Source of the DNA: a virus
UHGV virus genome: UHGV-0069723
Strand: one strand, 5' to 3'
DNA length: 41,341 nt
Under the pieces are notes generated by a model. The model had not been told where the DNA came from. It did no database searches and was given only the letters and a program-made list of their open reading frames with translations. This document shows positions 104 to 37,335 of this stretch, in pieces. How positions within the stretch are numbered: the first letter of the stretch is position 1; every line of letters starts with the position of its first letter. The position numbers and the translations under genes are program-made.

Positions 104-114
104 GGTGACGGTAT
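104..114. promoter_or_regulatory. Candidate integrase arm-type site GGTGACGGTAT (left arm)
   Basis: Same 11-mer in same orientation at 39391-39401 near the right end; the 10-mer GTGACGGTAT also occurs at 340-349 and 430-439 inside int. Confidence 0.3.
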
Positions 115-129
115 TACCTTAAAGGTATA
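115..129. promoter_or_regulatory. Degenerate operator-like site TTACC-TTAAA-GGTAT upstream of int
   Basis: One mismatch from the TTACC-N5-GGTAA palindrome found repeatedly in this prophage; 42 bp upstream of the int start. Confidence 0.3.
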
Positions 130-5367: not shown

Positions 5368-5444
5368 TTACCGTTGAGGTAATAATTATGCTTATTTGGT
5401 TTGGTGTCAATAGATATGAGTTAAAAAAATTACCCGTAAGGTAA
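5368..5444. promoter_or_regulatory. Left operator region: two perfect TTACC-N5-GGTAA sites (5368-5382, 5430-5444) flanking the leftward promoter
   Basis: TTACCGTTGAGGTAA and TTACCCGTAAGGTAA; on the minus strand a perfect TTGACA -35 (5405-5410) lies between them. Confidence 0.55.
5382..5410 (-). promoter_or_regulatory. Candidate sigma70 early-left promoter (PL-like)
   Basis: Minus-strand TTGACA, 16-17 bp spacer, TAATTA/ATAATT -10; about 35 bp upstream of the first leftward ORF. Confidence 0.4.
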
Positions 5445-5501: not shown

Positions 5502-6086
5502 TTATTGTTTGCTTTTTTCGTTCTGGTTGATGACAAATTCAATGTAACTTTCGATCTTTGCTTTCTCGGTTTCGGGTAACAATGCGTAGCGCGAGCGGTC
5601 ATAGTTGATAGTCGCAGGGTCGTGCGGGTGAATCAGTAGTTCATATCCGTGACGCCCGAATGCGGATGCAACATTCTCCAGGGTGGAAATGGAAACGCTG
5701 ACCTCATTGTTTAACAGGCGACTGATTGTCACCTGGGCGACGCCGGATGCGCGGTGAAGTTTTCCCTGCGTTGAAAGGTCGCGGCTTTCGCTCATCCAGC
5801 GTTCCAGGTTGTGAGCCGCCAGCTGACCAATGTCGCTTGGGCCGACAGGCTGAAAACCTTCCTGAGAAAGCGAGCGATCGATATCAAGCCAGTTACGGGG
5901 TTTATTGGCGGCAGCTTCAATTTTTCGCGCAACCTGGTCGCCGATAACCTTCTTGCCAAGAGCCCAGCGGTTTACCAGATTTGCCTGAGTTCCAAGTTTT
6001 TCTGCCATCCGCGTCTGAACACCATTGAATTCACGGTCGATCAAGTCGTTGAGATTTTGCCTGCGGACGTCCTGGATACTTTTCAT
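5502..6086 (-). CDS. Prophage repressor candidate with two HTH domains and no S24 peptidase domain
   Basis: 194 aa; two XRE/Cro-C1-like HTH segments (QTRMAEKLGTQANLVNRWALG and ASGVAQVTISRLLNNE); divergent from the cro-like gene across an operator-bearing intergenic region. Confidence 0.7.
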   Translation of the reverse strand: MKSIQDVRRQNLNDLIDREFNGVQTRMAEKLGTQANLVNRWALGKKVIGDQVARKIEAAANKPRNWLDIDRSLSQEGFQPVGPSDIGQLAAHNLERWMSESRDLSTQGKLHRASGVAQVTISRLLNNEVSVSISTLENVASAFGRHGYELLIHPHDPATINYDRSRYALLPETEKAKIESYIEFVINQNEKSKQ

Positions 6087-6240: not shown

Positions 6241-6471
6241 ATGAGCGATAACGGACATTTCGATTTCAAAAAGCACTGGCTTGCACTTACTCCGGATGAG
6301 CGTGAAGCCTTCGCACAGGAAGCCGGAACGACGAGTCACTATATCCAGACTCACTTAACAGGTAAGCGCAAAATGCCAGGTAAGGTATTGATGAATGGGC
6401 TTTTTAAAGCCTGTAAAACAAGACAATGGCTGCGCTCAAAAGCAGAACTGGCATACTTCTTCTACTCATGA
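6241..6471 (+). CDS. Cro/CII-like HTH regulator (first rightward early gene)
   Basis: 76 aa; HTH-like segment FAQEAGTTSHYIQTHLTG; divergent from the repressor; followed by a terminator. Confidence 0.65.
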   Translation: MSDNGHFDFKKHWLALTPDEREAFAQEAGTTSHYIQTHLTGKRKMPGKVLMNGLFKACKTRQWLRSKAELAYFFYS

Positions 6472-6493
6472 TATCCATCCACAACCCTCTGTA

Positions 6494-6516
6494 GACCGCC
6501 ATCCGGCGGTCTTTTC
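6494..6516 (+). terminator. Rho-independent terminator after the cro-like gene (tR1-like)
   Basis: Hairpin GACCGCC-ATCC-GGCGGTC followed by TTTT. Confidence 0.6.
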
Positions 6517-6526
6517 ATATCTATTC

Positions 6527-6541
6527 GTACCTCAAAGGTAA
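6527..6541. promoter_or_regulatory. Operator-like site GTACC-TCAAA-GGTAA
   Basis: One mismatch from TTACC-N5-GGTAA; directly downstream of the cro terminator and upstream of the next gene. Confidence 0.4.
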
Positions 6542-7653: not shown

Positions 7654-8435
7654 ACAACGTTTTTACCGCGATACAAAACCGTGACGGAGAAGCCCTTTCT
7701 CGCATGTCAGGTTATGAGCATCAGTACGTCAACAATGACAATGTGGTGAACATGTCAGCAGAGAGGCTTGTTGATGCCCTTTTCAAACAGCTGAAACAAC
7801 TGTTTCCGGCGGCAGTAGTAACCAACCTGAAGACTCCAGAGCAGGAAGTTGCTGCAAAACAGCAGTGGATTGCTGCGTTTGCCGAAGGGGGGATCCGAAC
7901 CCGTGAACAGGTTTCTGCTGGTATGCGCCACGCCCGCGCCAGTGAATCTCCGTTCTGGCCGTCGCCAGGGCAATTCATCAAGTGGTGTAAAGACAGCAAG
8001 ATGGTTCTTGGCGTCACCATTGACGATGTGATGGCGGAGTTTCACCGGTACAGCAAGGAAAAAAGTTTATATCCTGGTGGTCCCGAAAGATTCCCGTGGC
8101 GACATCCGGTTATGTACTGGGTCGTATGTGATACCCGCCGTGCAATGTATCAGCGCCAGCTTAGCGAGATTGAGGTTGAGAAACACGCGCGCAGGCTGCT
8201 CGATGATTGGGCGAAAAAGGTAGCTTCCGGACAGCAGATACCCGATCCGGTGATCAGCATACAGGCAAAGCCAGAACCCATGAGTACGCCTCCGGACACA
8301 GGGAGAGACGTTTACCATCCACCAGGGCGAAGTTTCGGGTGTATGCCTAACGCCGCCACATTGGGGGGAATAACACCGGCACAGTGGCTGATGGAGGAAT
8401 ACAGGCGGGGAAAGGCGGCAGGATTTATCAAGTAA
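7635..8435 (+). CDS. Lambda P-like replication protein (helicase loader)
   Basis: 266 aa; QVSAGMRHARASESPFWPSPGQFIKWCKD resembles what I recall of the lambda P core; no Walker A; start may be GTG 7635 or GTG 7650, overlapping the O-like stop. Confidence 0.7.
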   Translation: MGGFLVNNVFTAIQNRDGEALSRMSGYEHQYVNNDNVVNMSAERLVDALFKQLKQLFPAAVVTNLKTPEQEVAAKQQWIAAFAEGGIRTREQVSAGMRHARASESPFWPSPGQFIKWCKDSKMVLGVTIDDVMAEFHRYSKEKSLYPGGPERFPWRHPVMYWVVCDTRRAMYQRQLSEIEVEKHARRLLDDWAKKVASGQQIPDPVISIQAKPEPMSTPPDTGRDVYHPPGRSFGCMPNAATLGGITPAQWLMEEYRRGKAAGFIK

Positions 8436-8472
8436 TACCAGCGCGATAGCGCATTTTTTTACGCCTTGATAG

Positions 8473-8549
8473 TTACCTTCTGGGTAACAAAGTATTCTAA
8501 ACTCTATTGATTTCGTGTCTTATGTGGTTTTTAATTACCTCAGGGGTAA
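8473..8549. promoter_or_regulatory. Two perfect TTACC-N5-GGTAA sites (8473-8487, 8535-8549) with candidate promoters
   Basis: TTACCTTCTGGGTAA and TTACCTCAGGGGTAA; TTGATA (8465-8470) and TTGATT/TTTAAT promoter-like hexamers interleaved; second site ends 3 nt before the ATG at 8553. Confidence 0.55.
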
Positions 8550-8552
8550 ATT

Positions 8553-8897
8553 ATGAGAAAACAGATACAGGCTCTTGGTCGACTCAAAACAGGCCAGATG
8601 AACAAAACAGAATCTGCGTATTGCCAGCACCTTGAGTTGCGTAAACGTGCAGGAGAAATCGTCTGGTATCGATTTGAGGGTATCAAGCTGCGGTTAGCTG
8701 ACAACACGTTCTATACGCCAGATTTTGCTGTGATGCTCGCCACCGGCGAGATGGAACTGCACGAAGTGAAAGGTTTCTGGACCGACGACGCCAGGGTGAA
8801 AACCAAAGTCGCCGCAGATCAGTATCCGTTCCGAATCATCGGGGTAACGGTTAAACCAAAGAAAGCAGGTGGTGGCTGGAACATCGAAGAGTTCTGA
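8553..8897 (+). CDS. Hypothetical protein (possibly DUF1064-like)
   Basis: 114 aa ORF with AGGGG RBS; function not recognisable with confidence. Confidence 0.6.
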   Translation: MRKQIQALGRLKTGQMNKTESAYCQHLELRKRAGEIVWYRFEGIKLRLADNTFYTPDFAVMLATGEMELHEVKGFWTDDARVKTKVAADQYPFRIIGVTVKPKKAGGGWNIEEF

Positions 8898-8958
8898 ATC
8901 GACGATCTTTTTAGTTATCAATGTAATCAATAAGTTATGTGGATAAGCGAGGGTAAAG

Positions 8959-9492
8959 ATGGAAAGTAATATCAAAGGGTTAGTTGCCGCCGGGCATGAG
9001 ATGGCTTCGGAACTGAAAGCAGAATGTGGTGCCGTTGATATGCGCAGTGTGGCAAAGCTGATCAGCGATTTGGCAACGCAACTGGAAGTGCAACTGGTGC
9101 GTGCTAATGCGATGGCCGAAGACCAGCAGAAAGCGATTGAGTCAATTAAGCAGGCTGATTCGGCTGTTAAGTTGGCACACGAGAAGTTTTCGGCGCTGGC
9201 GGCGGAGAATGCGGCAATGCATGAAGCTATTGAAGCCGTTCGGAGTGTTGCGGATAACTCCAGTGGAATTGCCGGATGGCATTTGAATGGCGATATCGCT
9301 ACATGGGAAGAGATTCTTCCTGAAATTAACGATATCGAAACCCCAGCCACCGATGCTTTCCTGGCTGAAGTACGGGCGCAGGGGGTAGAGATGTTCTCAG
9401 AAAAATTCGGAGGTGGCACTCCGCTATCCAATATGGTCAAAGAGGTTGCGGCTGATTTTGCGGCGAAGCTTCGCAAAGGAGGCAACCAGTGA
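8959..9492 (+). CDS. Hypothetical protein
   Basis: 177 aa ORF, same strand, ends 4 nt into the next ORF. Confidence 0.6.
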   Translation: MESNIKGLVAAGHEMASELKAECGAVDMRSVAKLISDLATQLEVQLVRANAMAEDQQKAIESIKQADSAVKLAHEKFSALAAENAAMHEAIEAVRSVADNSSGIAGWHLNGDIATWEEILPEINDIETPATDAFLAEVRAQGVEMFSEKFGGGTPLSNMVKEVAADFAAKLRKGGNQ

Positions 9493-10112
9493 GCAAGATT
9501 GACTATCAGGCACTGCGTGAAGCGGCAGAACGCGCAATTCCGGCAATGGAACGCCTGTTAACGTTGCCAGCCGATGATGACTTGTTAAGCGAAAAGGAGC
9601 TTAAAGATAGCGATGTTGATATTGATGCGATTAACAACTTCAAACTGCTGACCGGCCCGGAAACGGTGCTGGCACTGCTGGATGAACGGGAAAGAAACCA
9701 GCAATACATAAAACGCCGTGACCAGGAGAACGAGGATATTGCGCTTACGGTTGGGAAGCTGCGAGTTGAGCTGGAAGCCGCAGAGAAGCGCAACGCTGAA
9801 TTACAAAGCGAGAATGCATACATCCGCAACCGGTTCAAAGAACTGGACCTGTTAATCGGGAAAAACATTCTGGTCATGCAGGCTGCGATTATCGAATGGC
9901 AGGCAACTGGCGACGCTAAGAGCGGACTGGCATGGATTTATAACACACTGTTTGGCCCTGGCGAATTGCCGGACGAATCTGAGAAAGATGCTCAGGCCTA
10001 CTTTAATCGCAAATATGCACCGATTGACGAAAAGCTTATGGAGCTTCACAAGTGGTTTTGGGAACAAAGTGAATCCGAGCGCGCCGCTGGCATTCGCATC
10101 AAAGGAGAGTGA
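9489..10112 (+). CDS. Hypothetical coiled-coil protein (possibly Ea22-like)
   Basis: 207 aa; start overlaps previous stop; central heptad-like segment (VGKLRVELEAAEKRNAELQSENAYIRNRFKELD). Confidence 0.6.
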   Translation: MSKIDYQALREAAERAIPAMERLLTLPADDDLLSEKELKDSDVDIDAINNFKLLTGPETVLALLDERERNQQYIKRRDQENEDIALTVGKLRVELEAAEKRNAELQSENAYIRNRFKELDLLIGKNILVMQAAIIEWQATGDAKSGLAWIYNTLFGPGELPDESEKDAQAYFNRKYAPIDEKLMELHKWFWEQSESERAAGIRIKGE

Positions 10113-10114
10113 TA

Positions 10115-10401
10115 TGGCAACTTTGCAGGAATTAATCGACCTGACGCCAGAACAGGAAAAAGCGTGGAATCGCCTTGTGAAGGCTGTAAAGGATTTCAGG
10201 GCAGCCGGAGGAAAGTTTTATAGCGTCCTGGACACGCTGAGCGCATACAACGGCGAGCACGTTGCCAGCATTGATAACGATAAGGGCTACCACACTGCAA
10301 GCGTCTATATGCCTAGCATTGATGCGCCAGGGCTAACCAGTTGGGCTGATGATTGGCACGGCATCACGCTGAAAGATGGCGTTGAAGTGGATGAGGACTA
10401 A
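10115..10401 (+). CDS. Hypothetical protein
   Basis: 95 aa from ATG 10115 (MATLQELIDL...) with AAAGGAG RBS; the track ORF starts upstream, overlapping the previous gene. Confidence 0.5.
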
Positions 10402-10404
10402 CAC

Positions 10405-10764
10405 ATGACCACTATTACCAATAAGAAACAGTATCCCAGCGAGCAATATCTTAATGAGCTGATCACCAACATAGAGTTTGCTGCAAGGGCACCAGTTGAA
10501 GTCGTGAGAGCGATGGCAGCAGAGCTACAGAAGCGGCGCGAAGCTGATAGTGCAGAACCTGTAAGCCAGGCTTACAAGTTGAACGCGCTGGATGGCAACT
10601 CTCCGGTAACTCCGGATGGTTGGGTTATGGTTCCTAAACAGGTAACGCCGGAAATCAGCAACGCGATAAACGTTGTGGGTCAACGCTGTACATGCGGAAA
10701 TTGCTCTCAGCGGTTGTGGGATTTATTACTCGACGCCACACAGCAAGGAGTTAACCGTGGCTAA
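10405..10764 (+). CDS. Hypothetical protein
   Basis: 119 aa ORF 3 nt after the previous stop. Confidence 0.55.
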   Translation: MTTITNKKQYPSEQYLNELITNIEFAARAPVEVVRAMAAELQKRREADSAEPVSQAYKLNALDGNSPVTPDGWVMVPKQVTPEISNAINVVGQRCTCGNCSQRLWDLLLDATQQGVNRG

Positions 10765-11038
10765 CCTGCAACTTGCCGTTAAAGGTGAATACTTCGATGC
10801 CATGATTCGCGGAGAGAAAACGGAAGAGTATCGCCTGTGTAATGACTACTGGAATAAGCGAATTATGTTCCGGGAGTATGACCGCCTGATTATCACAAAG
10901 GGATATCCGAAGCGCGACGACTCCAGCCGCAGAATTAACGTCCAGTATGACGGATATGAAATCAAGACAATCACACATCCCCACTTCGGTGATAAACCGG
11001 TAAAGGTGTTCGCGATAAAGGTAAATATTGATGGCTAA
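10757..11038 (+). CDS. Hypothetical protein, possibly ASCH/PUA-like fold
   Basis: 93 aa from GTG 10757 with AAGGAG RBS 7 nt upstream; AVKGEYFDAMIRGEKTEEYR resembles the ASCH N-terminal pattern (tentative). Confidence 0.45.
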   Translation: MANLQLAVKGEYFDAMIRGEKTEEYRLCNDYWNKRIMFREYDRLIITKGYPKRDDSSRRINVQYDGYEIKTITHPHFGDKPVKVFAIKVNIDG

Positions 11039-11369
11039 ATCAGCAGCAGAGCGCAAAGCCGCTCAGAGAGCCAGACAAGCTGCATCTGGTGTGTGTAAGC
11101 TGGAAATTGTGCTTGATGCTCAGGAAATTGAAATGCTGGCGCGGAACTGCGCCGCCCGGCGCCCTAGTCGCGATCCCTATGAAATGGCCGAGTACATCGC
11201 GCTGCTGATCCGCCAGGATGATGCACGTGTGCGCGGGCGTATAAAATCGATCAGCAGAAAACTTTGCGGTAAGTGCGGCGAGAGAGTTCCCGTTAATTCA
11301 TGCCCGTGTAATGGTGACTCGCAATGCTGGGTGACTAAAGGCTGGCATGAAACGAAATTAATAGTGTGA
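11028..11369 (+). CDS. Hypothetical protein with C-terminal Cys cluster
   Basis: 113 aa; C-terminal CGKCGERVPVNSCPCNGDSQC suggests metal binding; stop codon lies inside the GTGACATGTCAC palindrome. Confidence 0.55.
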   Translation: MMAKSAAERKAAQRARQAASGVCKLEIVLDAQEIEMLARNCAARRPSRDPYEMAEYIALLIRQDDARVRGRIKSISRKLCGKCGERVPVNSCPCNGDSQCWVTKGWHETKLIV

Positions 11370-11417: not shown

Positions 11418-11444
11418 TGCCGCCAACTATGGCGGCTTTATTTT
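11418..11444 (+). terminator. Rho-independent terminator between nin-like genes and terS
   Basis: Hairpin TGCCGCC-AACTAT-GGCGGC followed by TTTATTTT. Confidence 0.6.
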
Positions 11445-11455
11445 GCATGGTACTA

Positions 11456-11488
11456 TTACCACAACGGTAACTATTACCACGGTGGTTA
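11456..11488. promoter_or_regulatory. Two TTACC-N5-GGTAA-type sites just upstream of terS
   Basis: TTACCACAACGGTAA (11456-11470, perfect) and TTACCACGGTGGTTA (11474-11488, one mismatch) ending at the terS start codon. Confidence 0.5.
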
Positions 11489-14600: not shown

Positions 14601-14615
14601 TTACCCGAAGGGTAA
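14601..14615. promoter_or_regulatory. Perfect TTACC-N5-GGTAA site upstream of the head gene block
   Basis: TTACCCGAAGGGTAA, about 90 bp upstream of the first late-strand ORF. Confidence 0.5.
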
Positions 14616-14705
14616 TAATTCGCGCGTTAAATGTCAACTGCCTACGATAAATAAATCATATGTGGTTAAATTGGTAATAATTTAATTGCGTACGGAGTCA
14701 TTGAT

Positions 14706-26412: not shown

Positions 26413-28211
26413 GTTACTTTGGCCTTAATCCAGTAAACCAGAATCAGCAGCTTGACGAAGCAGCATCAAATCCAGCTGGCTTTAACAGCGATGTTGGTTT
26501 TTTCGACAATGCTGTAGGAGCGGCATTGTCTGGTTTGTACTCCGGGCTGGTGGCAAAGCCAGATCAGTTGCTATGGGCAGGGATGGATAAAATCGTATCC
26601 CCGATTGCTCAGTTTGTTAACGAAAACACCTCGATCAATGACACTTCAGTTTCATACATTGCTGAGCAGAGAAAACTAGCAGAGCAGCAGGTTAAGCGGC
26701 TGACGCCTGATGCCGCGACAACCGGAACCGCCGGGCAGGTCCTTTATGGGTTGTTCGATATGGGCGGGCAGGCTGTTGTCGGTACAACGCTCGGTGGTCC
26801 GGTCGGAGGTGCTGCGGCGGTAACTTCTCTACAGGGTTTTTCTGAGTTTGAACGGCTTACAGCACAGGGTGTTGATTTCAGGACGGCGCAGGAAGCGGGA
26901 TTAGTGCAGGGTATTACTGCTGGTGCCGGAACACTGATCCCTATGAGCCTCGGGTTACGTGCTGGTGGTGCGCTGGCGGAAGGTGTGGCGGCTCAGCTTG
27001 CGCGGACGGGTGAAAGTTCAGTGCGACGCGCCGCAGCAACAGCAGTACGTGCAACGCCAGATATTGCCTATGCCGCAGGTACAAATATTGCGTTCGGTAT
27101 GGCACAGCGTGGGCTTACTGCAAAAACGCTTCGTGATGGTGGCTATAGCGAAATGGCTAACCAGTATGATGTGTTGGATCGACAGGCAATTGCTATTGAT
27201 GCTGTTCTTGGGGTGGCGTTTGGTGGTGTCGGCAGATTTATTAACTTTCGCGGCGAGTCTACAAGCGCACCAAATTTTTCACTAGTTGATATCGATGCTG
27301 CACTGGCGGCGAATGCCGCTCATCATGCTGAAATTGATATTGCTCCCGGCGTGCCGATCAACGTGCTTTCGCGTAATTCGCACATTCAGGCTCTGCGAAA
27401 AGCCATGTCTGATGTTAGCCAGGGGAGACCTGTAGACGTTGCCAGCATTGTTGAGTCTGCATCTTTCAGTGAAATTCCTGGACGCAAGAGTCTGCTGTCT
27501 CAGGCAGTTAATGAGGCTCTGTCATCTGTAGATGATGGAGTAACGGCGCGCGCTATAGAAAATCGGTTGCTTGAAGAACAGGCCGCGCAGCTTTTGCCGC
27601 GTGGCGATAGACAGGTTTACCAGTCTGAAATCGCTAATAGCCAACGAATTATTGAAAATCTCACTGAACAGCGCGCACAAATTCTTGCAGAAGATCCAGC
27701 CGGTAGCGGTAAGGCTTTATCTCGTGCTCGATCAGATAAACAGGCCAGACTTCGCGATATTGACCAACGAATCCGGCAGGCACAAGAACGCCTGGAATTT
27801 TCTCGTAACGCGTTGGCACCGCATGAGCCTGGCGGTCAGTTTTTTGAAGCTCGAGCAGAACTGGCTCGGAGACAGCAGGCAGAAAGTGAACTTAATGCTC
27901 AGGCTGTTTCATTCTATAAAACAGCAGAGGTCAGGACGCCAGACGAAGTAGCTCCTTTTGAGCCTGATAAAATATTGCAACAGGCAGAACAAAAAATGAT
28001 GTCAGATCAGGCAGGAGATATTGATTTGCGCATAGCTGAAGACTCGCTGCTTGAATCACCTGACATGATAATCACCGTGCTGGATGATGATGGTAATCCA
28101 CAATCGCGCAGTGCGCGTGAAGCACTGGATGAAGCGAACAGGGAAAGTGAGCAGGCAATACAGGATTCCAGCCTGTTTGATGTCGCTGTGGCGTGTTTCT
28201 TGAGAGGTTAA
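26409..28211 (+). CDS. Large internal virion / ejection protein
   Basis: 600 aa; Gly/Ala-rich N-terminal region, coiled-coil C-terminal region. Confidence 0.6.
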   Translation: MSYFGLNPVNQNQQLDEAASNPAGFNSDVGFFDNAVGAALSGLYSGLVAKPDQLLWAGMDKIVSPIAQFVNENTSINDTSVSYIAEQRKLAEQQVKRLTPDAATTGTAGQVLYGLFDMGGQAVVGTTLGGPVGGAAAVTSLQGFSEFERLTAQGVDFRTAQEAGLVQGITAGAGTLIPMSLGLRAGGALAEGVAAQLARTGESSVRRAAATAVRATPDIAYAAGTNIAFGMAQRGLTAKTLRDGGYSEMANQYDVLDRQAIAIDAVLGVAFGGVGRFINFRGESTSAPNFSLVDIDAALAANAAHHAEIDIAPGVPINVLSRNSHIQALRKAMSDVSQGRPVDVASIVESASFSEIPGRKSLLSQAVNEALSSVDDGVTARAIENRLLEEQAAQLLPRGDRQVYQSEIANSQRIIENLTEQRAQILAEDPAGSGKALSRARSDKQARLRDIDQRIRQAQERLEFSRNALAPHEPGGQFFEARAELARRQQAESELNAQAVSFYKTAEVRTPDEVAPFEPDKILQQAEQKMMSDQAGDIDLRIAEDSLLESPDMIITVLDDDGNPQSRSAREALDEANRESEQAIQDSSLFDVAVACFLRG

Positions 28212-33114: not shown

Positions 33115-33810
33115 TCAGAAGAACCCTGCTTTGTCGTTGATGTATTCCGCGTGGGTCTGGATATCACGCAGGCATTTACTCACACCGACGATGTAGCAGA
33201 ACATGGTGGTCAGCTCCGCCGCCGCGCCCGATACGTCGTGCCCGTCGTCCTGTAACTGGTTCAGCAGATTCATCAGCAGTGAGTTCTCCGTCAGGCCGAG
33301 AACACCAGACGGCGAGTGAATCAGGCTGCGGTAGCCGGGCTTCAGCGGGGCGCTGTAGGTTTTGTTCTCTATCTTCATCGCCTGCATTACTGCTGACGCC
33401 GTGGCGTTGGCTACCTGGTCGGCAACCATCTTTATGCGTTCTTCCTGCGGGAGCGAGTTTTTAATGTAACTTCCGGTGCGGCGGATCTGAGGAAGTACTT
33501 CGCCTGTAACCCATTTGCGAAAGCGGTAGGGGATAGTGCCTGGTGTCACCGCATCGCGGCAGCGGAGGATCAGTGTGTAGAGGCCTGACTCGGAGATGAT
33601 GATCGATTCTTGCTCACCGCCAGGGGTGTCGGTTGAAGCGACGCCCTTCTCATCATCATCAAGTTTTCGAACAGCATCTCGATGGTTTGCTATGCCTATA
33701 GCCCGACAAACATCTGAAGCGATAAACCATGGCTCACCATTAATGACGATTACCCGTATATCGGCTTGGGATTCGAAAGAAAAAATGGACGTGCTTTTTG
33801 TAGCTGTCAT
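33115..33810 (-). CDS. Bro-N domain antirepressor-like protein
   Basis: 231 aa; N-terminal FSFESQADIRVIVINGEPWFIASDVCRAIGIANHRDAVRKLDDDEK...GLYTLILRC...WVTGEVLPQIRRTGSY fits the Bro-N pattern; C-terminal domain is paralogous to the small ORF at 34126-34383. Confidence 0.85.
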   Translation of the reverse strand: MTATKSTSIFSFESQADIRVIVINGEPWFIASDVCRAIGIANHRDAVRKLDDDEKGVASTDTPGGEQESIIISESGLYTLILRCRDAVTPGTIPYRFRKWVTGEVLPQIRRTGSYIKNSLPQEERIKMVADQVANATASAVMQAMKIENKTYSAPLKPGYRSLIHSPSGVLGLTENSLLMNLLNQLQDDGHDVSGAAAELTTMFCYIVGVSKCLRDIQTHAEYINDKAGFF

Positions 33811-34079
33811 AGTGGTTACCTTTTAGTCTGGTTAATCACCACTACCGACGCCAATCGGTTGGTGGTGAACTGTGCAGGGTTGGCGTAACCGGCTAAAAGG
33901 ACCCGGCGCACCTTTCGGTGCCCCCACACAGCCCACCATAATACGAATGTGGCCGTGCTATACGCATAAAAAAACCGCTTGCGCGGTGAATGCGCCTTTT
34001 AGTAATCCGGGACGCCAATCCCGGCACTGGATTTTGCCAGTGCCCGATTACTATGGCACAAGAGGAGTGCGATGTAAAT

Positions 34080-34125: not shown

Positions 34126-34383
34126 TTATCTGGTTTGTTTTCGTAATTGTTCGGCACAATAGTCGAGATGTGTTTGTAGATCCTGCATAGACATCTGTGA
34201 GCTGGTGACGTAGTTAATCAGTGCAGTCAGTTCGGCAAGTGGGCCATCGACATTAAATCCATCCTTATCGAGATCCCGGAGTAATTTCATCAAGTGCGAT
34301 CCCTCCACCAGTGACCTGACGCCTCCCGGCGTGTGAATCCTTTCGGTAAATCCGTCTTCCAGTGGATAGTGATACTGCTGCAT
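34126..34383 (-). CDS. Small antirepressor-like protein (paralog of the Bro-N protein C-terminal domain)
   Basis: 85 aa from ATG 34383 (MQQYHYPLEDGF...); HTPGGVRSLVEGSHLMKLLRDLDKDGFNVDGPLAELT...DLQTHLDYC aligns with HSPSGVLGLTENSLLMNLLNQLQDDGHDVSGAAAELT...DIQTHAEYI of the Bro-N protein; LexA box in its promoter. Confidence 0.6.
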   Translation of the reverse strand: MQQYHYPLEDGFTERIHTPGGVRSLVEGSHLMKLLRDLDKDGFNVDGPLAELTALINYVTSSQMSMQDLQTHLDYCAEQLRKQTR

Positions 34384-34404: not shown

Positions 34405-34420
34405 CTGTATATTTATACAG
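34405..34420. promoter_or_regulatory. LexA (SOS) box CTGTATATTTATACAG
   Basis: Matches CTGT-N8-ACAG with an AT-rich spacer and perfect dyad symmetry; 22 bp upstream of the small antirepressor-like ORF, overlapping its likely -10. Confidence 0.7.
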
Positions 34421-34474: not shown

Positions 34475-34578
34475 TATCTATTCGTATTTACAGTCTTTCT
34501 ATCCATATGTGGTTTTTCAGGTAATAGAATAACCAGATATGCGGCGCAACGGGTGCTGCGACTATCTGGAGATTTAAC

Positions 34579-37335
34579 ATGACGGTCTCAACCGAAGTTG
34601 ACCACAACGAATACACAGGTAACGGAGCTACGACATCATTTCCGTATACCTTCCGTATTTTCAAAAAATCCGACCTGGTTGTTCAGGTGTCTGACCTGAA
34701 CGGGAACGTAACAGAATTGGTTCTGGATACCGGTTATACGGTAACAGGGGCGGGCACTTATAGTGGCGGTTCTGTTGTTCTTCCGTCGCCGCTTGCTGCT
34801 GGATGGCGAATTACGATAGATCGTGTGCTTGATGTGGTGCAGGAGACTGATCTTCGTAATCAGGGAAAATTTTTCCCCGAGGTGCATGAAGATGCCTTTG
34901 ACTATCTGACGATGCTGATCCAGCAATGTTTTGGATGGTTCAGACGTGCATTGATGAAACCATCTTTGCTTGCAAAATATTACGATGCAAAGCAAAACAA
35001 AATTTCTAACCTTGCAGATCCATCACTTGAGCAGGATGCTGTAAATAATCGATCAATGCGCAATTATGTTGATGCTGCAATCGCCGGAGTTGTTGGTGGT
35101 TTTGGTTGGTTTATTCAGTATGGTTCTGGAGCAGTATACCGAACGTTCCAGGATAAGATGCGGGATAACGTTAACGCTCTTGATTTTGTTCCGTTTGAGC
35201 AAAGATATGCTGCATTAAATTTTGAAGTTGATGCGTCTGAATGGTTAATTAATGCGATAAATTCTGGTGCAAGTGTCGTTAGAATACCTGCAGGTAAATG
35301 GATGATTTCTAAGAACATAGATGTGCCTCCTGGAGTGTCTTTAATTGGTGATGGCATTGATTATTGGGATACATATAGACCAGCGCCTGAAAGATTATTA
35401 AAAAGTTGGAGTAAAGGAACCCATCTTGTATTTACTGGTGATGGAGAAAAAAACAAATATTTTTTTAACATCTCTAATGAAAGACCAGTTAAAATTGTTG
35501 AAGGGATATCTTGTAAGTTCACTGAGTTTACAAATGAAGATTCTGTAGGTGTTACTCCTGCTACACCAAAAGCCATGAGCGTAGCTGTTAGTATCAACAG
35601 GGCATCACAGTTACGCAACCTGAGAATAATGGTAAGTAAAAATGGTATTGAAGGATACAATAACCCTGATTCTTATTCATTGGGTGATGACTGGGATATA
35701 GGGTTGCATGTATACGATAGCTGTGATTCAGTTATTGATAACGTACAGATTGTCGGCTATTGGAGGGTAAAAGGACTACTACTGACAGAAAATGACGGGA
35801 GCCTTTCAATGAAGGGAAATCCTGAAAAAACGCACTTTAATAACGTTTATGTCCAGTCAGGGATCGCGATAAGGAATAGCCCTCAGATTGATCTTGTAAG
35901 TAATACTGAAAGCTCAGTGACATTTAAACATAAAAAGTCGATGAGAATAACTTCAGTTAAACAGTTTAAAATTGCTGGCAGTGAATCAGTATATACGTAT
36001 TCAGATGCATCATTTGATGGAGCTAACATCACACTATCTGGTATTTCTCCTGAAATACAAGGTACAATAAGTGTAATCAGGTTTCCGTCAATTGGTAATA
36101 ATTTTAGCGGGACTGTTTTTGAGAATACAGTAGCCACTACTCTTGATCATACATCAGGTAAGCCATCAGAATACTTTGGCCTTCCTGCATCCTTTGCATT
36201 AGAGGTTGATGGTTTCCCTGTTCGTAATTTAAGGTTTGATAAATTCAAAGCTCAAACAACATTTGATAAAGGAAATTGCATTTTTGGTGATTGCCGTGAT
36301 GTTAAAATAACATCATCTGAGTTTGAAAATGGAATTATGATTGCGTATAACCAGACCGAGACTCAGGGTTATACAGGAAATCTTAGATTTTTTGCTTCTG
36401 ATCTTCAGAGCAGCGTTAACACAAGTGAGTTTAAACCAAGAGACGCATTTGTAGACAATAGACAAATAAAAACGGAGTTTACTGATGGTTCGTTCATTAT
36501 AAAGAACTGGAGGCCTACAGATACAAAAATACAATGGTCGTCTGGAGCAGATGCTATTGTTCTTAGAGAGTCACCTGACGAACAATCAGACGGAAATATT
36601 TACGGGTATCACATTGATGGTAAAAGATGGATTAATGTTAGTGGATATAACAAAGATATAAATATTTCATCAAGAAACTTAAGCGTAAAAAACCATGGTG
36701 ATGACTCTGCAGTTATTAATATATTCGGCGACTCTGGAAATATTGCCATTAAAGGTAATTTTTCACCAATTATTGATAACAGCAAATCTCTTGGTGCACC
36801 ATCATTTAGATGGGCACAGGTTTATTCTGCGAACGGTTCGATAAACACATCAGATGGTAGAGAAAAAAGTGAACCGATTAGTACAAGTGAGCTCAGCTTG
36901 TATATGTCTCGTGGTTATGAAGGTGATGCAATTCTGGATGCATGGGGAGATATCAGGATTGTAGCTTTTCGCTGGCTTGATGCCGTCAGGGAAAAGGGAG
37001 ATGGTGCCCGCTGGCATTTTGGTGTTATAGCACAACAAGTGAGAGACACTTTCCTCGCGCATGGGATTGATGGAACCAGATTTGGCCTTCTCTGTTACGA
37101 TGAATGGGATGATAAATACGCGCCAGTGATGGCGGTAAGGATGATCACTAAAGTTGTGGATGGCGTCGAAATTGAGATGGAAGAAGAATACGAAACAGAA
37201 GAGCGAACTCTGGTTTGCAAGGCTGGAAATAGGTGGGGTATCCGTACTGACCAGTGTTTATGGCTTGAGTCAGCTTATTTGCGTAGAAGAATCGAAAAAA
37301 TAGAATCACGTCTTGCAATGCTTGAAAGTAGCTAA
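34579..37335 (+). CDS. Tailspike / tail fibre with C-terminal intramolecular chaperone (peptidase S74-type) domain
   Basis: 918 aa; conserved-looking N-terminal head-binding region; visibly AT-rich central region (~35200-36850); C-terminal ...SDGREKSEPISTSELSLYMSRGYEGDAILDAWGDIRIVAFRW... resembles the self-cleaving chaperone-of-endosialidase domain. Confidence 0.85.
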   Translation: MTVSTEVDHNEYTGNGATTSFPYTFRIFKKSDLVVQVSDLNGNVTELVLDTGYTVTGAGTYSGGSVVLPSPLAAGWRITIDRVLDVVQETDLRNQGKFFPEVHEDAFDYLTMLIQQCFGWFRRALMKPSLLAKYYDAKQNKISNLADPSLEQDAVNNRSMRNYVDAAIAGVVGGFGWFIQYGSGAVYRTFQDKMRDNVNALDFVPFEQRYAALNFEVDASEWLINAINSGASVVRIPAGKWMISKNIDVPPGVSLIGDGIDYWDTYRPAPERLLKSWSKGTHLVFTGDGEKNKYFFNISNERPVKIVEGISCKFTEFTNEDSVGVTPATPKAMSVAVSINRASQLRNLRIMVSKNGIEGYNNPDSYSLGDDWDIGLHVYDSCDSVIDNVQIVGYWRVKGLLLTENDGSLSMKGNPEKTHFNNVYVQSGIAIRNSPQIDLVSNTESSVTFKHKKSMRITSVKQFKIAGSESVYTYSDASFDGANITLSGISPEIQGTISVIRFPSIGNNFSGTVFENTVATTLDHTSGKPSEYFGLPASFALEVDGFPVRNLRFDKFKAQTTFDKGNCIFGDCRDVKITSSEFENGIMIAYNQTETQGYTGNLRFFASDLQSSVNTSEFKPRDAFVDNRQIKTEFTDGSFIIKNWRPTDTKIQWSSGADAIVLRESPDEQSDGNIYGYHIDGKRWINVSGYNKDINISSRNLSVKNHGDDSAVINIFGDSGNIAIKGNFSPIIDNSKSLGAPSFRWAQVYSANGSINTSDGREKSEPISTSELSLYMSRGYEGDAILDAWGDIRIVAFRWLDAVREKGDGARWHFGVIAQQVRDTFLAHGIDGTRFGLLCYDEWDDKYAPVMAVRMITKVVDGVEIEMEEEYETEERTLVCKAGNRWGIRTDQCLWLESAYLRRRIEKIESRLAMLESS

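Follow-up and report, generated by a model that had tools for sequence, protein, structure and literature searches.

How is the small gene that follows the replication genes of an epsilon15-like prophage switched on, and what does its product do? To address this question, we analyzed the gene at positions 8553-8897 of UHGV virus genome UHGV-0069723, together with the 117-base-pair (bp) gap ahead of it (8436-8552). The whole stretch of DNA analyzed, 41,341 nucleotides (nt) long, is referred to as the window, and positions are those of the window unless another genome is named. A previous sequence-only reading had placed two perfect operators and two promoter-like elements in this gap, expected the gene to be repressed in the lysogen and derepressed early, and suggested that its product of 114 amino acids (aa) might be a regulator or nuclease-fold protein acting as a late-gene control factor. 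We consider it probable that the locus is a repressor-gated, self-contained cassette that drives a DUF1064 nuclease unit in a Uetakevirus prophage. The early region is 96-97% identical to that of podoviruses of the epsilon15/phiV10 type (genus Uetakevirus), and the window corresponds to a prophage next to guaA in E. coli chromosomes. Because 8300-9000 was found in 530 of 5426 complete E. coli genomes (~10%), a correct annotation of this region is of practical value. As a gene map we used the Prokaryotic Genome Annotation Pipeline (PGAP) annotation of one RefSeq chromosome that matches 8300-9000 at 100%; it likewise contains the open reading frame 8553-8897 and names its product a DUF1064 protein.

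One promoter and two operators

The cassette is made up of the following features:

8441-8460, plus strand: terminator-like hairpin after replication gene P, with a GCGC stem (8441-8444/8449-8452), the loop GATA, then A and a run of seven T (8454-8460)
8473-8487, no strand assigned: distal operator, 10 nt past the conserved TAC that closes the T-run; its centre lies ~62 bp upstream of the predicted start
8507-8512, plus strand: -35 element TTGATT (TTGAnn in 108 of 109 distinct cassettes), followed by a 17-nt spacer
8521-8529, plus strand: TATGTGGTT motif in the promoter spacer
8530-8535, plus strand: -10 element TTTAAT (TTTAAT or TTAAAT in 102 of 109 distinct cassettes)
8535-8549, no strand assigned: proximal operator, over the end of the -10 element, the predicted start (~8542) and the Shine-Dalgarno sequence AGGGG (8542-8546)
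8553-8897, plus strand: DUF1064 gene, 114 aa, PD-(D/E)XK nuclease fold by prediction, predicted Holliday-junction/branched-DNA endonuclease

Both perfect operators reported ahead of the reading frame are present: the distal palindrome TTACCTTCTGGGTAA (8473-8487) and the proximal palindrome TTACCTCAGGGGTAA (8535-8549), in which the half-sites TTACC and GGTAA enclose the centres TTCTG and TCAGG, respectively. Perfect copies of TTACC-N5-GGTAA occur 10 times in the window, compared to 0.01 expected from shuffled sequence, and all 10 lie within the non-coding 10% of the window (chance probability ~1e-10, with the terS start corrected). The final T of the -10 element (8535) is the first base of the proximal operator, and the ATG of the gene begins 3 nt past that operator.

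The second promoter of the sequence-only reading did not hold up, and we found one promoter with twin operators instead. Judged from its sequence, TTGATT-17-TTTAAT is the sole credible promoter of the gap, with a predicted start site, and it is kept in Salmonella, Klebsiella, and Enterobacter relatives. Our promoter scan missed it because the scan demands an A at position 2 of the -10 element. The other candidate, TTGATA at 8466-8471, lacks a -10 element at a spacing of 16-18 nt, and just 5 of the 109 cassettes contain it. No RNA element was detected in 8436-8552 with Rfam at its gathering thresholds.

To examine conservation, we aligned the cassette of the window with those of Salmonella SPN1S, Enterobacter BUCT554, and Klebsiella Kp4865-1 and BUCT711, and found it conserved although the upstream replication genes differ between these phages. 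The hairpin (fold -7.4 kcal/mol, z = -2.9) keeps an invariant stem and T-run in five genera-level relatives, with a loop that varies, and it may act as a terminator after the replication genes. A pattern scan of IMG/VR that required perfect operators and allowed a spacing of 60-64 bp returned at least 120 contigs with the cassette, in 109 distinct versions. The two operators were 62 bp apart in all 109, despite insertions and deletions nearby. As the scan itself demanded perfect operators, we repeated the count on 80 loci selected through the repressor protein (Rep) alone, for which the recovered repressors were all 99-100% identical. The cassette was present in 73 of these loci, with both sites perfect in 70 and one mismatch in 3.

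We then calculated variability (1 minus the frequency of the commonest base) over the 61 distinct cassettes from the Rep-selected loci. Mean variability was 0.002 at the 20 half-site positions versus 0.27 at the 10 central positions; it was 0.003 at the -35 element, 0.01 at the -10 element, and 0.055 elsewhere. The half-sites are common to all Uetakevirus relatives examined. To judge from these sequences, fixed half-sites with free centres bear the signature of contact by a dimeric helix-turn-helix protein. The operator centres (8478-8482 and 8540-8544) are thus more variable than the surrounding non-coding DNA (0.27 versus 0.055), and the distal centre alone occurs in 38 different versions among the 109 cassettes. 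These variable centres may reflect tuning of affinity or immunity, or gene conversion between sites.

The same arrangement is found a second time in the window, at PL:

5368-5444, minus strand: PL region, with operators at 5368-5382 and 5430-5444, 62 bp apart, and TTGACA-17-AATTAT

PL aligns without gaps to the cassette at 8466-8556, sharing the distal operator and the sequence CTATTGA at the -35 element, and in both places the -10 element abuts the proximal operator. This comparison bears on an alternative explanation of the distal operator, namely that it gates a leftward antisense promoter (AAGACA at 8521-8516, a 16-nt spacer, TAGAAT at 8499-8494) directed into the end of the P gene, with no cooperation with the proximal site. 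The scan gives this minus-strand site 9 of 12 matches, and the site is kept in E. coli-type cassettes. Outside these it is lost: TAGAAT is replaced by CGCATA in Salmonella, Klebsiella, and Enterobacter, where the operator and the 62-bp spacing are still invariant. PL moreover has the twin layout without such a promoter, and the region contains fewer promoter-like matches than its shuffles do. We rejected this promoter as a candidate and give the explanation built on it very little likelihood.

The TATGTGGTT motif in the spacer has three perfect copies in the window (8521-8529, 14659-14667, and 34506-34514) and one with 1 mismatch (8936-8944). The three perfect copies are all intergenic and on the plus strand, and a perfect Rep-type operator lies 46-58 nt upstream of each; after the motif, at a distance of 5 nt, comes an operator half-site (TTACC or GGTAA). 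In epsilon15, copies at 2990, 24753, and 35955 occupy equivalent places before gp3, gp23, and gp43. We considered the motif as an extended -10, a -35, a CRP-like, or a sigma-54-like element, none of which suits all copies.

The repressor, its sites and the proposed switch

The positions of the palindromes mark the starts of transcription units across the window:

5368 and 5430: PL, behind the repressor gene
6142, 6159 and 6190: one perfect site and two degenerate ones, in the interval from the repressor gene to the cro-like gene
8473 and 8535: the gap before 8553-8897
11456 and 11474: abutting terS
14601-14615: perfect, before the portal operon
33030, 34080 and 34460: antirepressor/tail-fibre region

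The site at 14601 was not scored perfect in NZ_CP069480.1, an otherwise close match, so the window differs from that record. A site with one mismatch, TTACCTTAAAGGTAT, is located just upstream of int in the attachment-site region (window 114-128), and its epsilon15 counterpart is TTACCCTAAAGGTAT at 26882-26896.

The window also encodes the components of a repressor/antirepressor switch:

5502-6086, minus strand: Rep, 194 aa, predicted operator-binding protein
34126-34383, minus strand: ant, 85 aa, matching the anti-repressor PDB 5D50_E (E = 4e-47), hypothetical in PGAP
34405-34420: LexA box CTGTATATTTATACAG, canonical, 22 nt upstream of ant

Rep matches the SPC32H repressor over its full length (PDB 5D50_A, E = 3.5e-42, residues 1-190), and its Pfam matches are helix-turn-helix families only, with no S24 peptidase domain. 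It is 43% identical to the Rep of SPN1S, the Salmonella Rep closest to that of SPC32H. Although the Reps of E. coli, Salmonella, and Klebsiella phages share only 43-45% identity, their recognition helix (NLVNRW) is conserved and the half-sites do not differ between them. According to two papers that cite the SPC32H work, Rep of the SPC32H type is a tetramer on palindromic DNA whose DNA-binding pairs come from different dimers, and a tetrameric Ant breaks it apart (PMC9638917, PMC9986798).

The RefSeq record of epsilon15 (NC_004775.2) carries 'repressor' binding features on the same palindromes: before terS, gp3, and the tail fibre gene, three at PL, and one at 35906-35922 before gp43. The second site of the gp43 gap (35969-35983) is present 62 bp away and is without annotation. 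From this annotation and from sequence we strongly infer that Rep binds the palindromes at 8473 and 8535. The expectation that the gene has an operator-controlled promoter of its own, repressed in the lysogen and derepressed early, is supported, if by inference: the palindromes match the sites at rep-cro and PL, epsilon15 has them annotated for the repressor, and the window encodes the Rep/Ant/LexA-box switch.

An alternative is that the palindromes are mainly bound by the product of the cro-like gene 6241-6471, or by an activator, so that the unit is tuned in lytic growth and not silenced. Cro-type proteins usually share the operators of the repressor, and the 76-aa cro-like protein matches phrog_35 'transcriptional repressor'. 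However, a site over the -10 element and the start predicts repression, not activation; the epsilon15 curators attribute the sites to the repressor; and a pair of sites fits a tetramer that has two DNA-binding pairs. Binding by the cro-like protein is also compatible with binding by Rep, as both may use the sites. As a replacement for repression by Rep, we consider this alternative quite unlikely.

We propose the following course for a Rep-gated cassette. The hairpin and T-run would end, or at least attenuate, transcription arriving from the replication genes, and one sigma-70 promoter would start a new unit running from 8553 to ~11369 and ending at the terminator-like sequence 11419-11436. 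In the lysogen, Rep would occupy both operators, and the proximal one would block RNA polymerase at the -10 element and start, keeping the unit off. The distal operator, six helical turns away on the same face, probably adds cooperativity through the second DNA-binding pair. Since the Rep tetramer has two such pairs, a single tetramer could hold and bridge both operators. Upon DNA damage, LexA cleavage would release ant, Ant would dismantle Rep, and the promoter would fire alongside PL and PR with no activator required. The nuclease would then resolve Holliday junctions or trim branched replication or recombination intermediates, working beside the RecT/YqaJ pair encoded on the left arm. The predicted elements of this scheme are Rep binding, bridging by a tetramer, the role of the hairpin as a terminator, the position at which transcription starts, and the substrate of the nuclease.

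More tentatively, and with somewhat more doubt than belief, we entertain two linked readings: that the 62-bp twin operators are the two-site target of a 'trans-mode' Rep tetramer, and that DUF1064 is a family of Holliday-junction resolvases which can functionally stand in for the RuvC family in one and the same regulatory slot. In the first of these, the tetramer would clamp the sites at P(8553), the promoter of the gene, or at PL across a very short loop, with the geometry of the protein as the ruler, and the hypervariable operator centres would tune affinity or immunity.

Several points weigh against the cassette as we describe it. The link between Rep and the operators rests on annotation, position, and co-conservation, and the cro-like protein may bind the same sites. 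With 47 bp between the operators, the loop is short and calls for a flexible protein. A scan for a heteroimmune variant, with the same cassette backbone and a non-TTACC distal site, found none. Lastly, the hairpin has a 4-bp stem and in two relatives folds no better than shuffled sequence; the terminator scan did not call it because its stem is under the 5-bp threshold of that scan.

The 114-aa protein and the late-gene question

The nuclease fold, one of the two possibilities named for the 114-aa protein, was borne out by Pfam, a structural model, and fold-level evidence. The protein matches DUF1064 in Pfam (PF06356; 31.3 bits versus a gathering threshold of 24.7), and its AlphaFold model (pLDDT 79, pTM 0.70) has the expected PD-(D/E)XK core: an alpha-beta-beta-beta-alpha-beta arrangement with the glutamate in helix 1, the PD, and the (D/E)xK. 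We found 6854 homologues, and in homologues with as little as 71% identity no change was seen at E20, P56-D57, or E71-V72-K73. An earlier study placed DUF1064, by prediction, among the PD-(D/E)XK nucleases, as a relative of families resembling T7 endonuclease I (PMC1189080). A later paper gave its function as unknown, suspected a role in recombination, and reported its co-occurrence with RecT, SSB, and DnaB/C (PMC3424549). The protein also matches PHROG 190 'Holliday junction resolvase' (E = 7e-43).

The gene behind the cassette is exchanged between phages. In epsilon15, the same cassette precedes gp43, which passes the Pfam cutoff for RuvC, and behind the IMG/VR cassettes we found 97 intact and 4 broken DUF1064 genes versus 23 RuvC-family genes. 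Comparison of the DUF1064 and RuvC-family proteins revealed no similarity, and on sequence the exchange is a non-orthologous replacement in one regulatory slot. Given that a RuvC-family resolvase occupies the same slot, the 114-aa protein is most likely a Holliday-junction or branched-DNA endonuclease. The cassette does not travel with the DUF1064 gene: in Pseudomonas phage F116, this gene follows a NinB/Orf gene and an HNH gene, overlapping the preceding gene with no gap, and in Vibrio phage X29 it has an upstream gap of ~40 nt and no cassette of this kind. As the gene is embedded in operons in both phages, we rejected a promoter of its own as a trait of DUF1064 genes; the absence of the cassette from F116 and X29 indicates that it is a property of the Uetakevirus early region and not of the DUF1064 gene.

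Some results count against the resolvase assignment. PHROG annotations are non-experimental, and Foldseek returned nothing at E <= 0.001 for the model. Matches to T7 endonuclease I are non-significant in sequence and profile searches of the PDB (E = 0.18-0.2) and in Foldseek (E = 0.48), although they do align the catalytic motif. With the single-sequence, profile, and Foldseek searches all short of significance, we rejected an assignment to T7 endonuclease I, and claim on the model the nuclease fold of the protein and not its subfamily.

The nuclease could instead have a job other than junction resolution: it might degrade host DNA, have an activity of a restriction-like or anti-defence kind, or carry out a step in packaging the genome. 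The open reading frame downstream (8959-9492) has no methyltransferase match, and its sole Pfam match is weak and unrelated. PADLOC returned no match for the DUF1064 protein, for which reason we also rejected membership of the 8553 operon in a defence system. The slot is interchangeable with a RuvC-family resolvase, the gene has a NinB/Orf neighbour in F116, PHROG 190 names a resolvase, and a link to recombination is indicated by the co-occurrence with RecT, SSB, and DnaB/C that has been reported (PMC3424549). Such other jobs are unlikely in our view.

The remaining suggestion, that the 114-aa protein is a transcription regulator turning on the late genes, has two points in its favour: the gene heads a separately controlled unit between the replication and late genes, and none of the early-region proteins that were annotated or scanned was recognised as a Q-like antiterminator. 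However, we found no match of the protein to a regulator or DNA-binding family in Pfam, PHROGs, or NCBIfam; its fold and invariant catalytic residues, like the PHROG 190 match, are those of a nuclease; and a RuvC-family resolvase substitutes for it in epsilon15 and in the 23 viral contigs with the cassette unchanged. The late units carry Rep-type operators themselves, at terS, the portal operon, and the tail-fibre genes, and through these they appear to be gated directly. Moreover, the operon contains a better candidate for a late regulator, if it contains one at all, in its last gene:

11031-11369, plus strand: last gene of the unit, phrog_536 'transcriptional regulator' (E = 9e-53), equivalent to epsilon15 gp49

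Its product is basic at the N-terminus and rich in Cys at the C-terminus (CGKCG...CPCNGDSQC), and searches of Pfam, NCBIfam, and the PDB gave no match. Taken together, the case for the 114-aa protein as a late-gene control factor did not survive, and we see scarcely any likelihood in it.

The other genes of the predicted unit are as follows:

8959-11369, plus strand: a 177-aa unknown, an Ead/Ea22-like gene, further unknowns, a DUF551 remnant, an ASCH-domain gene, and the phrog_536 gene

These genes are tightly packed on one strand, with no operator or terminator-like site before 11419-11436, and probably belong to the 8553 operon. The C-terminal part of the Ead/Ea22-like protein (9489-10112, plus strand) matches the PADLOC model DpdH (E = 7.6e-37).

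At the end of the unit, the start chosen for terS by PGAP (TTG 11410) reads through the terminator-like hairpin 11419-11436 and the operators at 11456 and 11474; from the ATG at 11488, terS is 198 aa long, the same length as epsilon15 terS. The sequence TGgTACTAT at 11448-11456 looks like an extended -10 element abutting the operator. A hairpin and T-run followed within ~12-20 nt by a Rep-type operator recurs at 6493-6541, 8441-8487, and 11419-11488. This punctuation between cro, the replication genes, the nuclease unit, and terS suggests serial repressor-gated units, not antitermination.

In the antirepressor region, Rfam identified a C4 antisense RNA (77.7 bits; 33858-33943, minus strand) and an isrK Hfq-binding RNA (77.9 bits; 33968-34043, minus strand), both located between the 34080 operator and the BRO-N gene 33115-33810. 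The C4/isrK/BRO-N region resembles the c4/ant module of P1 immI and lies downstream of the SPC32H-type ant.

Comparison with known systems

The closest match is epsilon15, where the region upstream of gp43 has, as in the window, the GCGC hairpin with seven T, the distal operator, TTGAAA-17-TTAAAT, the proximal operator 62 bp off, and the ATG 3 nt on. Likewise, gp43 follows a replication gene and precedes Eae/Ead-like genes. In contrast to the window, the first gene of the epsilon15 unit is of the RuvC family, unrelated to DUF1064, and only the distal site is annotated. The switch resembles that of SPC32H (PDB 5D50/5D4Z; Kim and Ryu 2013 and Kim et al. 2016, as cited in PMC9638917 and PMC9986798). 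The window shares with SPC32H a Rep homologue without an autocleavage domain, an 85-aa Ant, and a LexA box before ant, and SPC32H carries a DUF1064 gene 94% identical to that of the window. The Rep of the window differs in being only 43% identical to the Salmonella Rep.

More distant parallels are found in lambda and P1. Hochschild and Ptashne reportedly observed in 1986 that lambda repressor binds cooperatively to operators 5-6 helical turns apart. OL/OR of lambda and the cassette have in common two operators for one oligomeric repressor, one of them over the core promoter, and a spacing of integral turns (62 bp being ~6). The natural lambda sites are adjacent, and the lambda repressor is a dimer pairing through its C-terminal domains, whereas the sites here are 62 bp apart and Rep would be a preformed tetramer that is disassembled by an antirepressor and not cleaved. 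In P1, the operators of the C1 repressor are dispersed over the genome as asymmetric 17-mers, and immI holds a c4-icd-ant module. As in P1, one repressor in the window appears to gate many units, the late ones included (sites at terS, the portal operon, and the tail fibre), and, as in immI, a C4 antisense RNA and isrK adjoin a BRO-N gene. C1, however, is unrelated to Rep, and the sites of the window are palindromic and often phased pairs.

With regard to the protein, a small nuclease just after the replication genes is a feature shared with lambda Rap (NinG), RusA, T7 endonuclease I, and archaeal Hjc, and the proposed job is that of epsilon15 gp43, of Rap or RusA in lambdoid nin regions, and of T7 endonuclease I. 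T7 endonuclease I and Hjc have the PD-(D/E)XK core (E...PD...ExK) of the 114-aa protein, whereas Rap and RusA have different folds; the similarity of the protein to each of the solved resolvases is non-significant.

Together, these comparisons indicate that the layout is real and strongly conserved, yet an ordinary, partly annotated design of epsilon15-like phages. The Rep/Ant switch of SPC32H, the epsilon15 annotation, and DUF1064 as a predicted nuclease are already known. As far as we checked, there is no earlier description of the second operator, of the 62-bp phasing that never varies and recurs at PL, or of the swap between DUF1064 and RuvC. Two operators at an invariant six-turn spacing would be a natural DNA substrate for the published model of the Rep tetramer, and the swap is a clean natural experiment that indicates what a widespread domain of unknown function is likely to do. 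Overall, our findings are consistent with an epsilon15-like design in which one antirepressor-sensitive repressor would gate short units, each apparently behind a terminator-like hairpin, in place of a lambda-style antitermination cascade.

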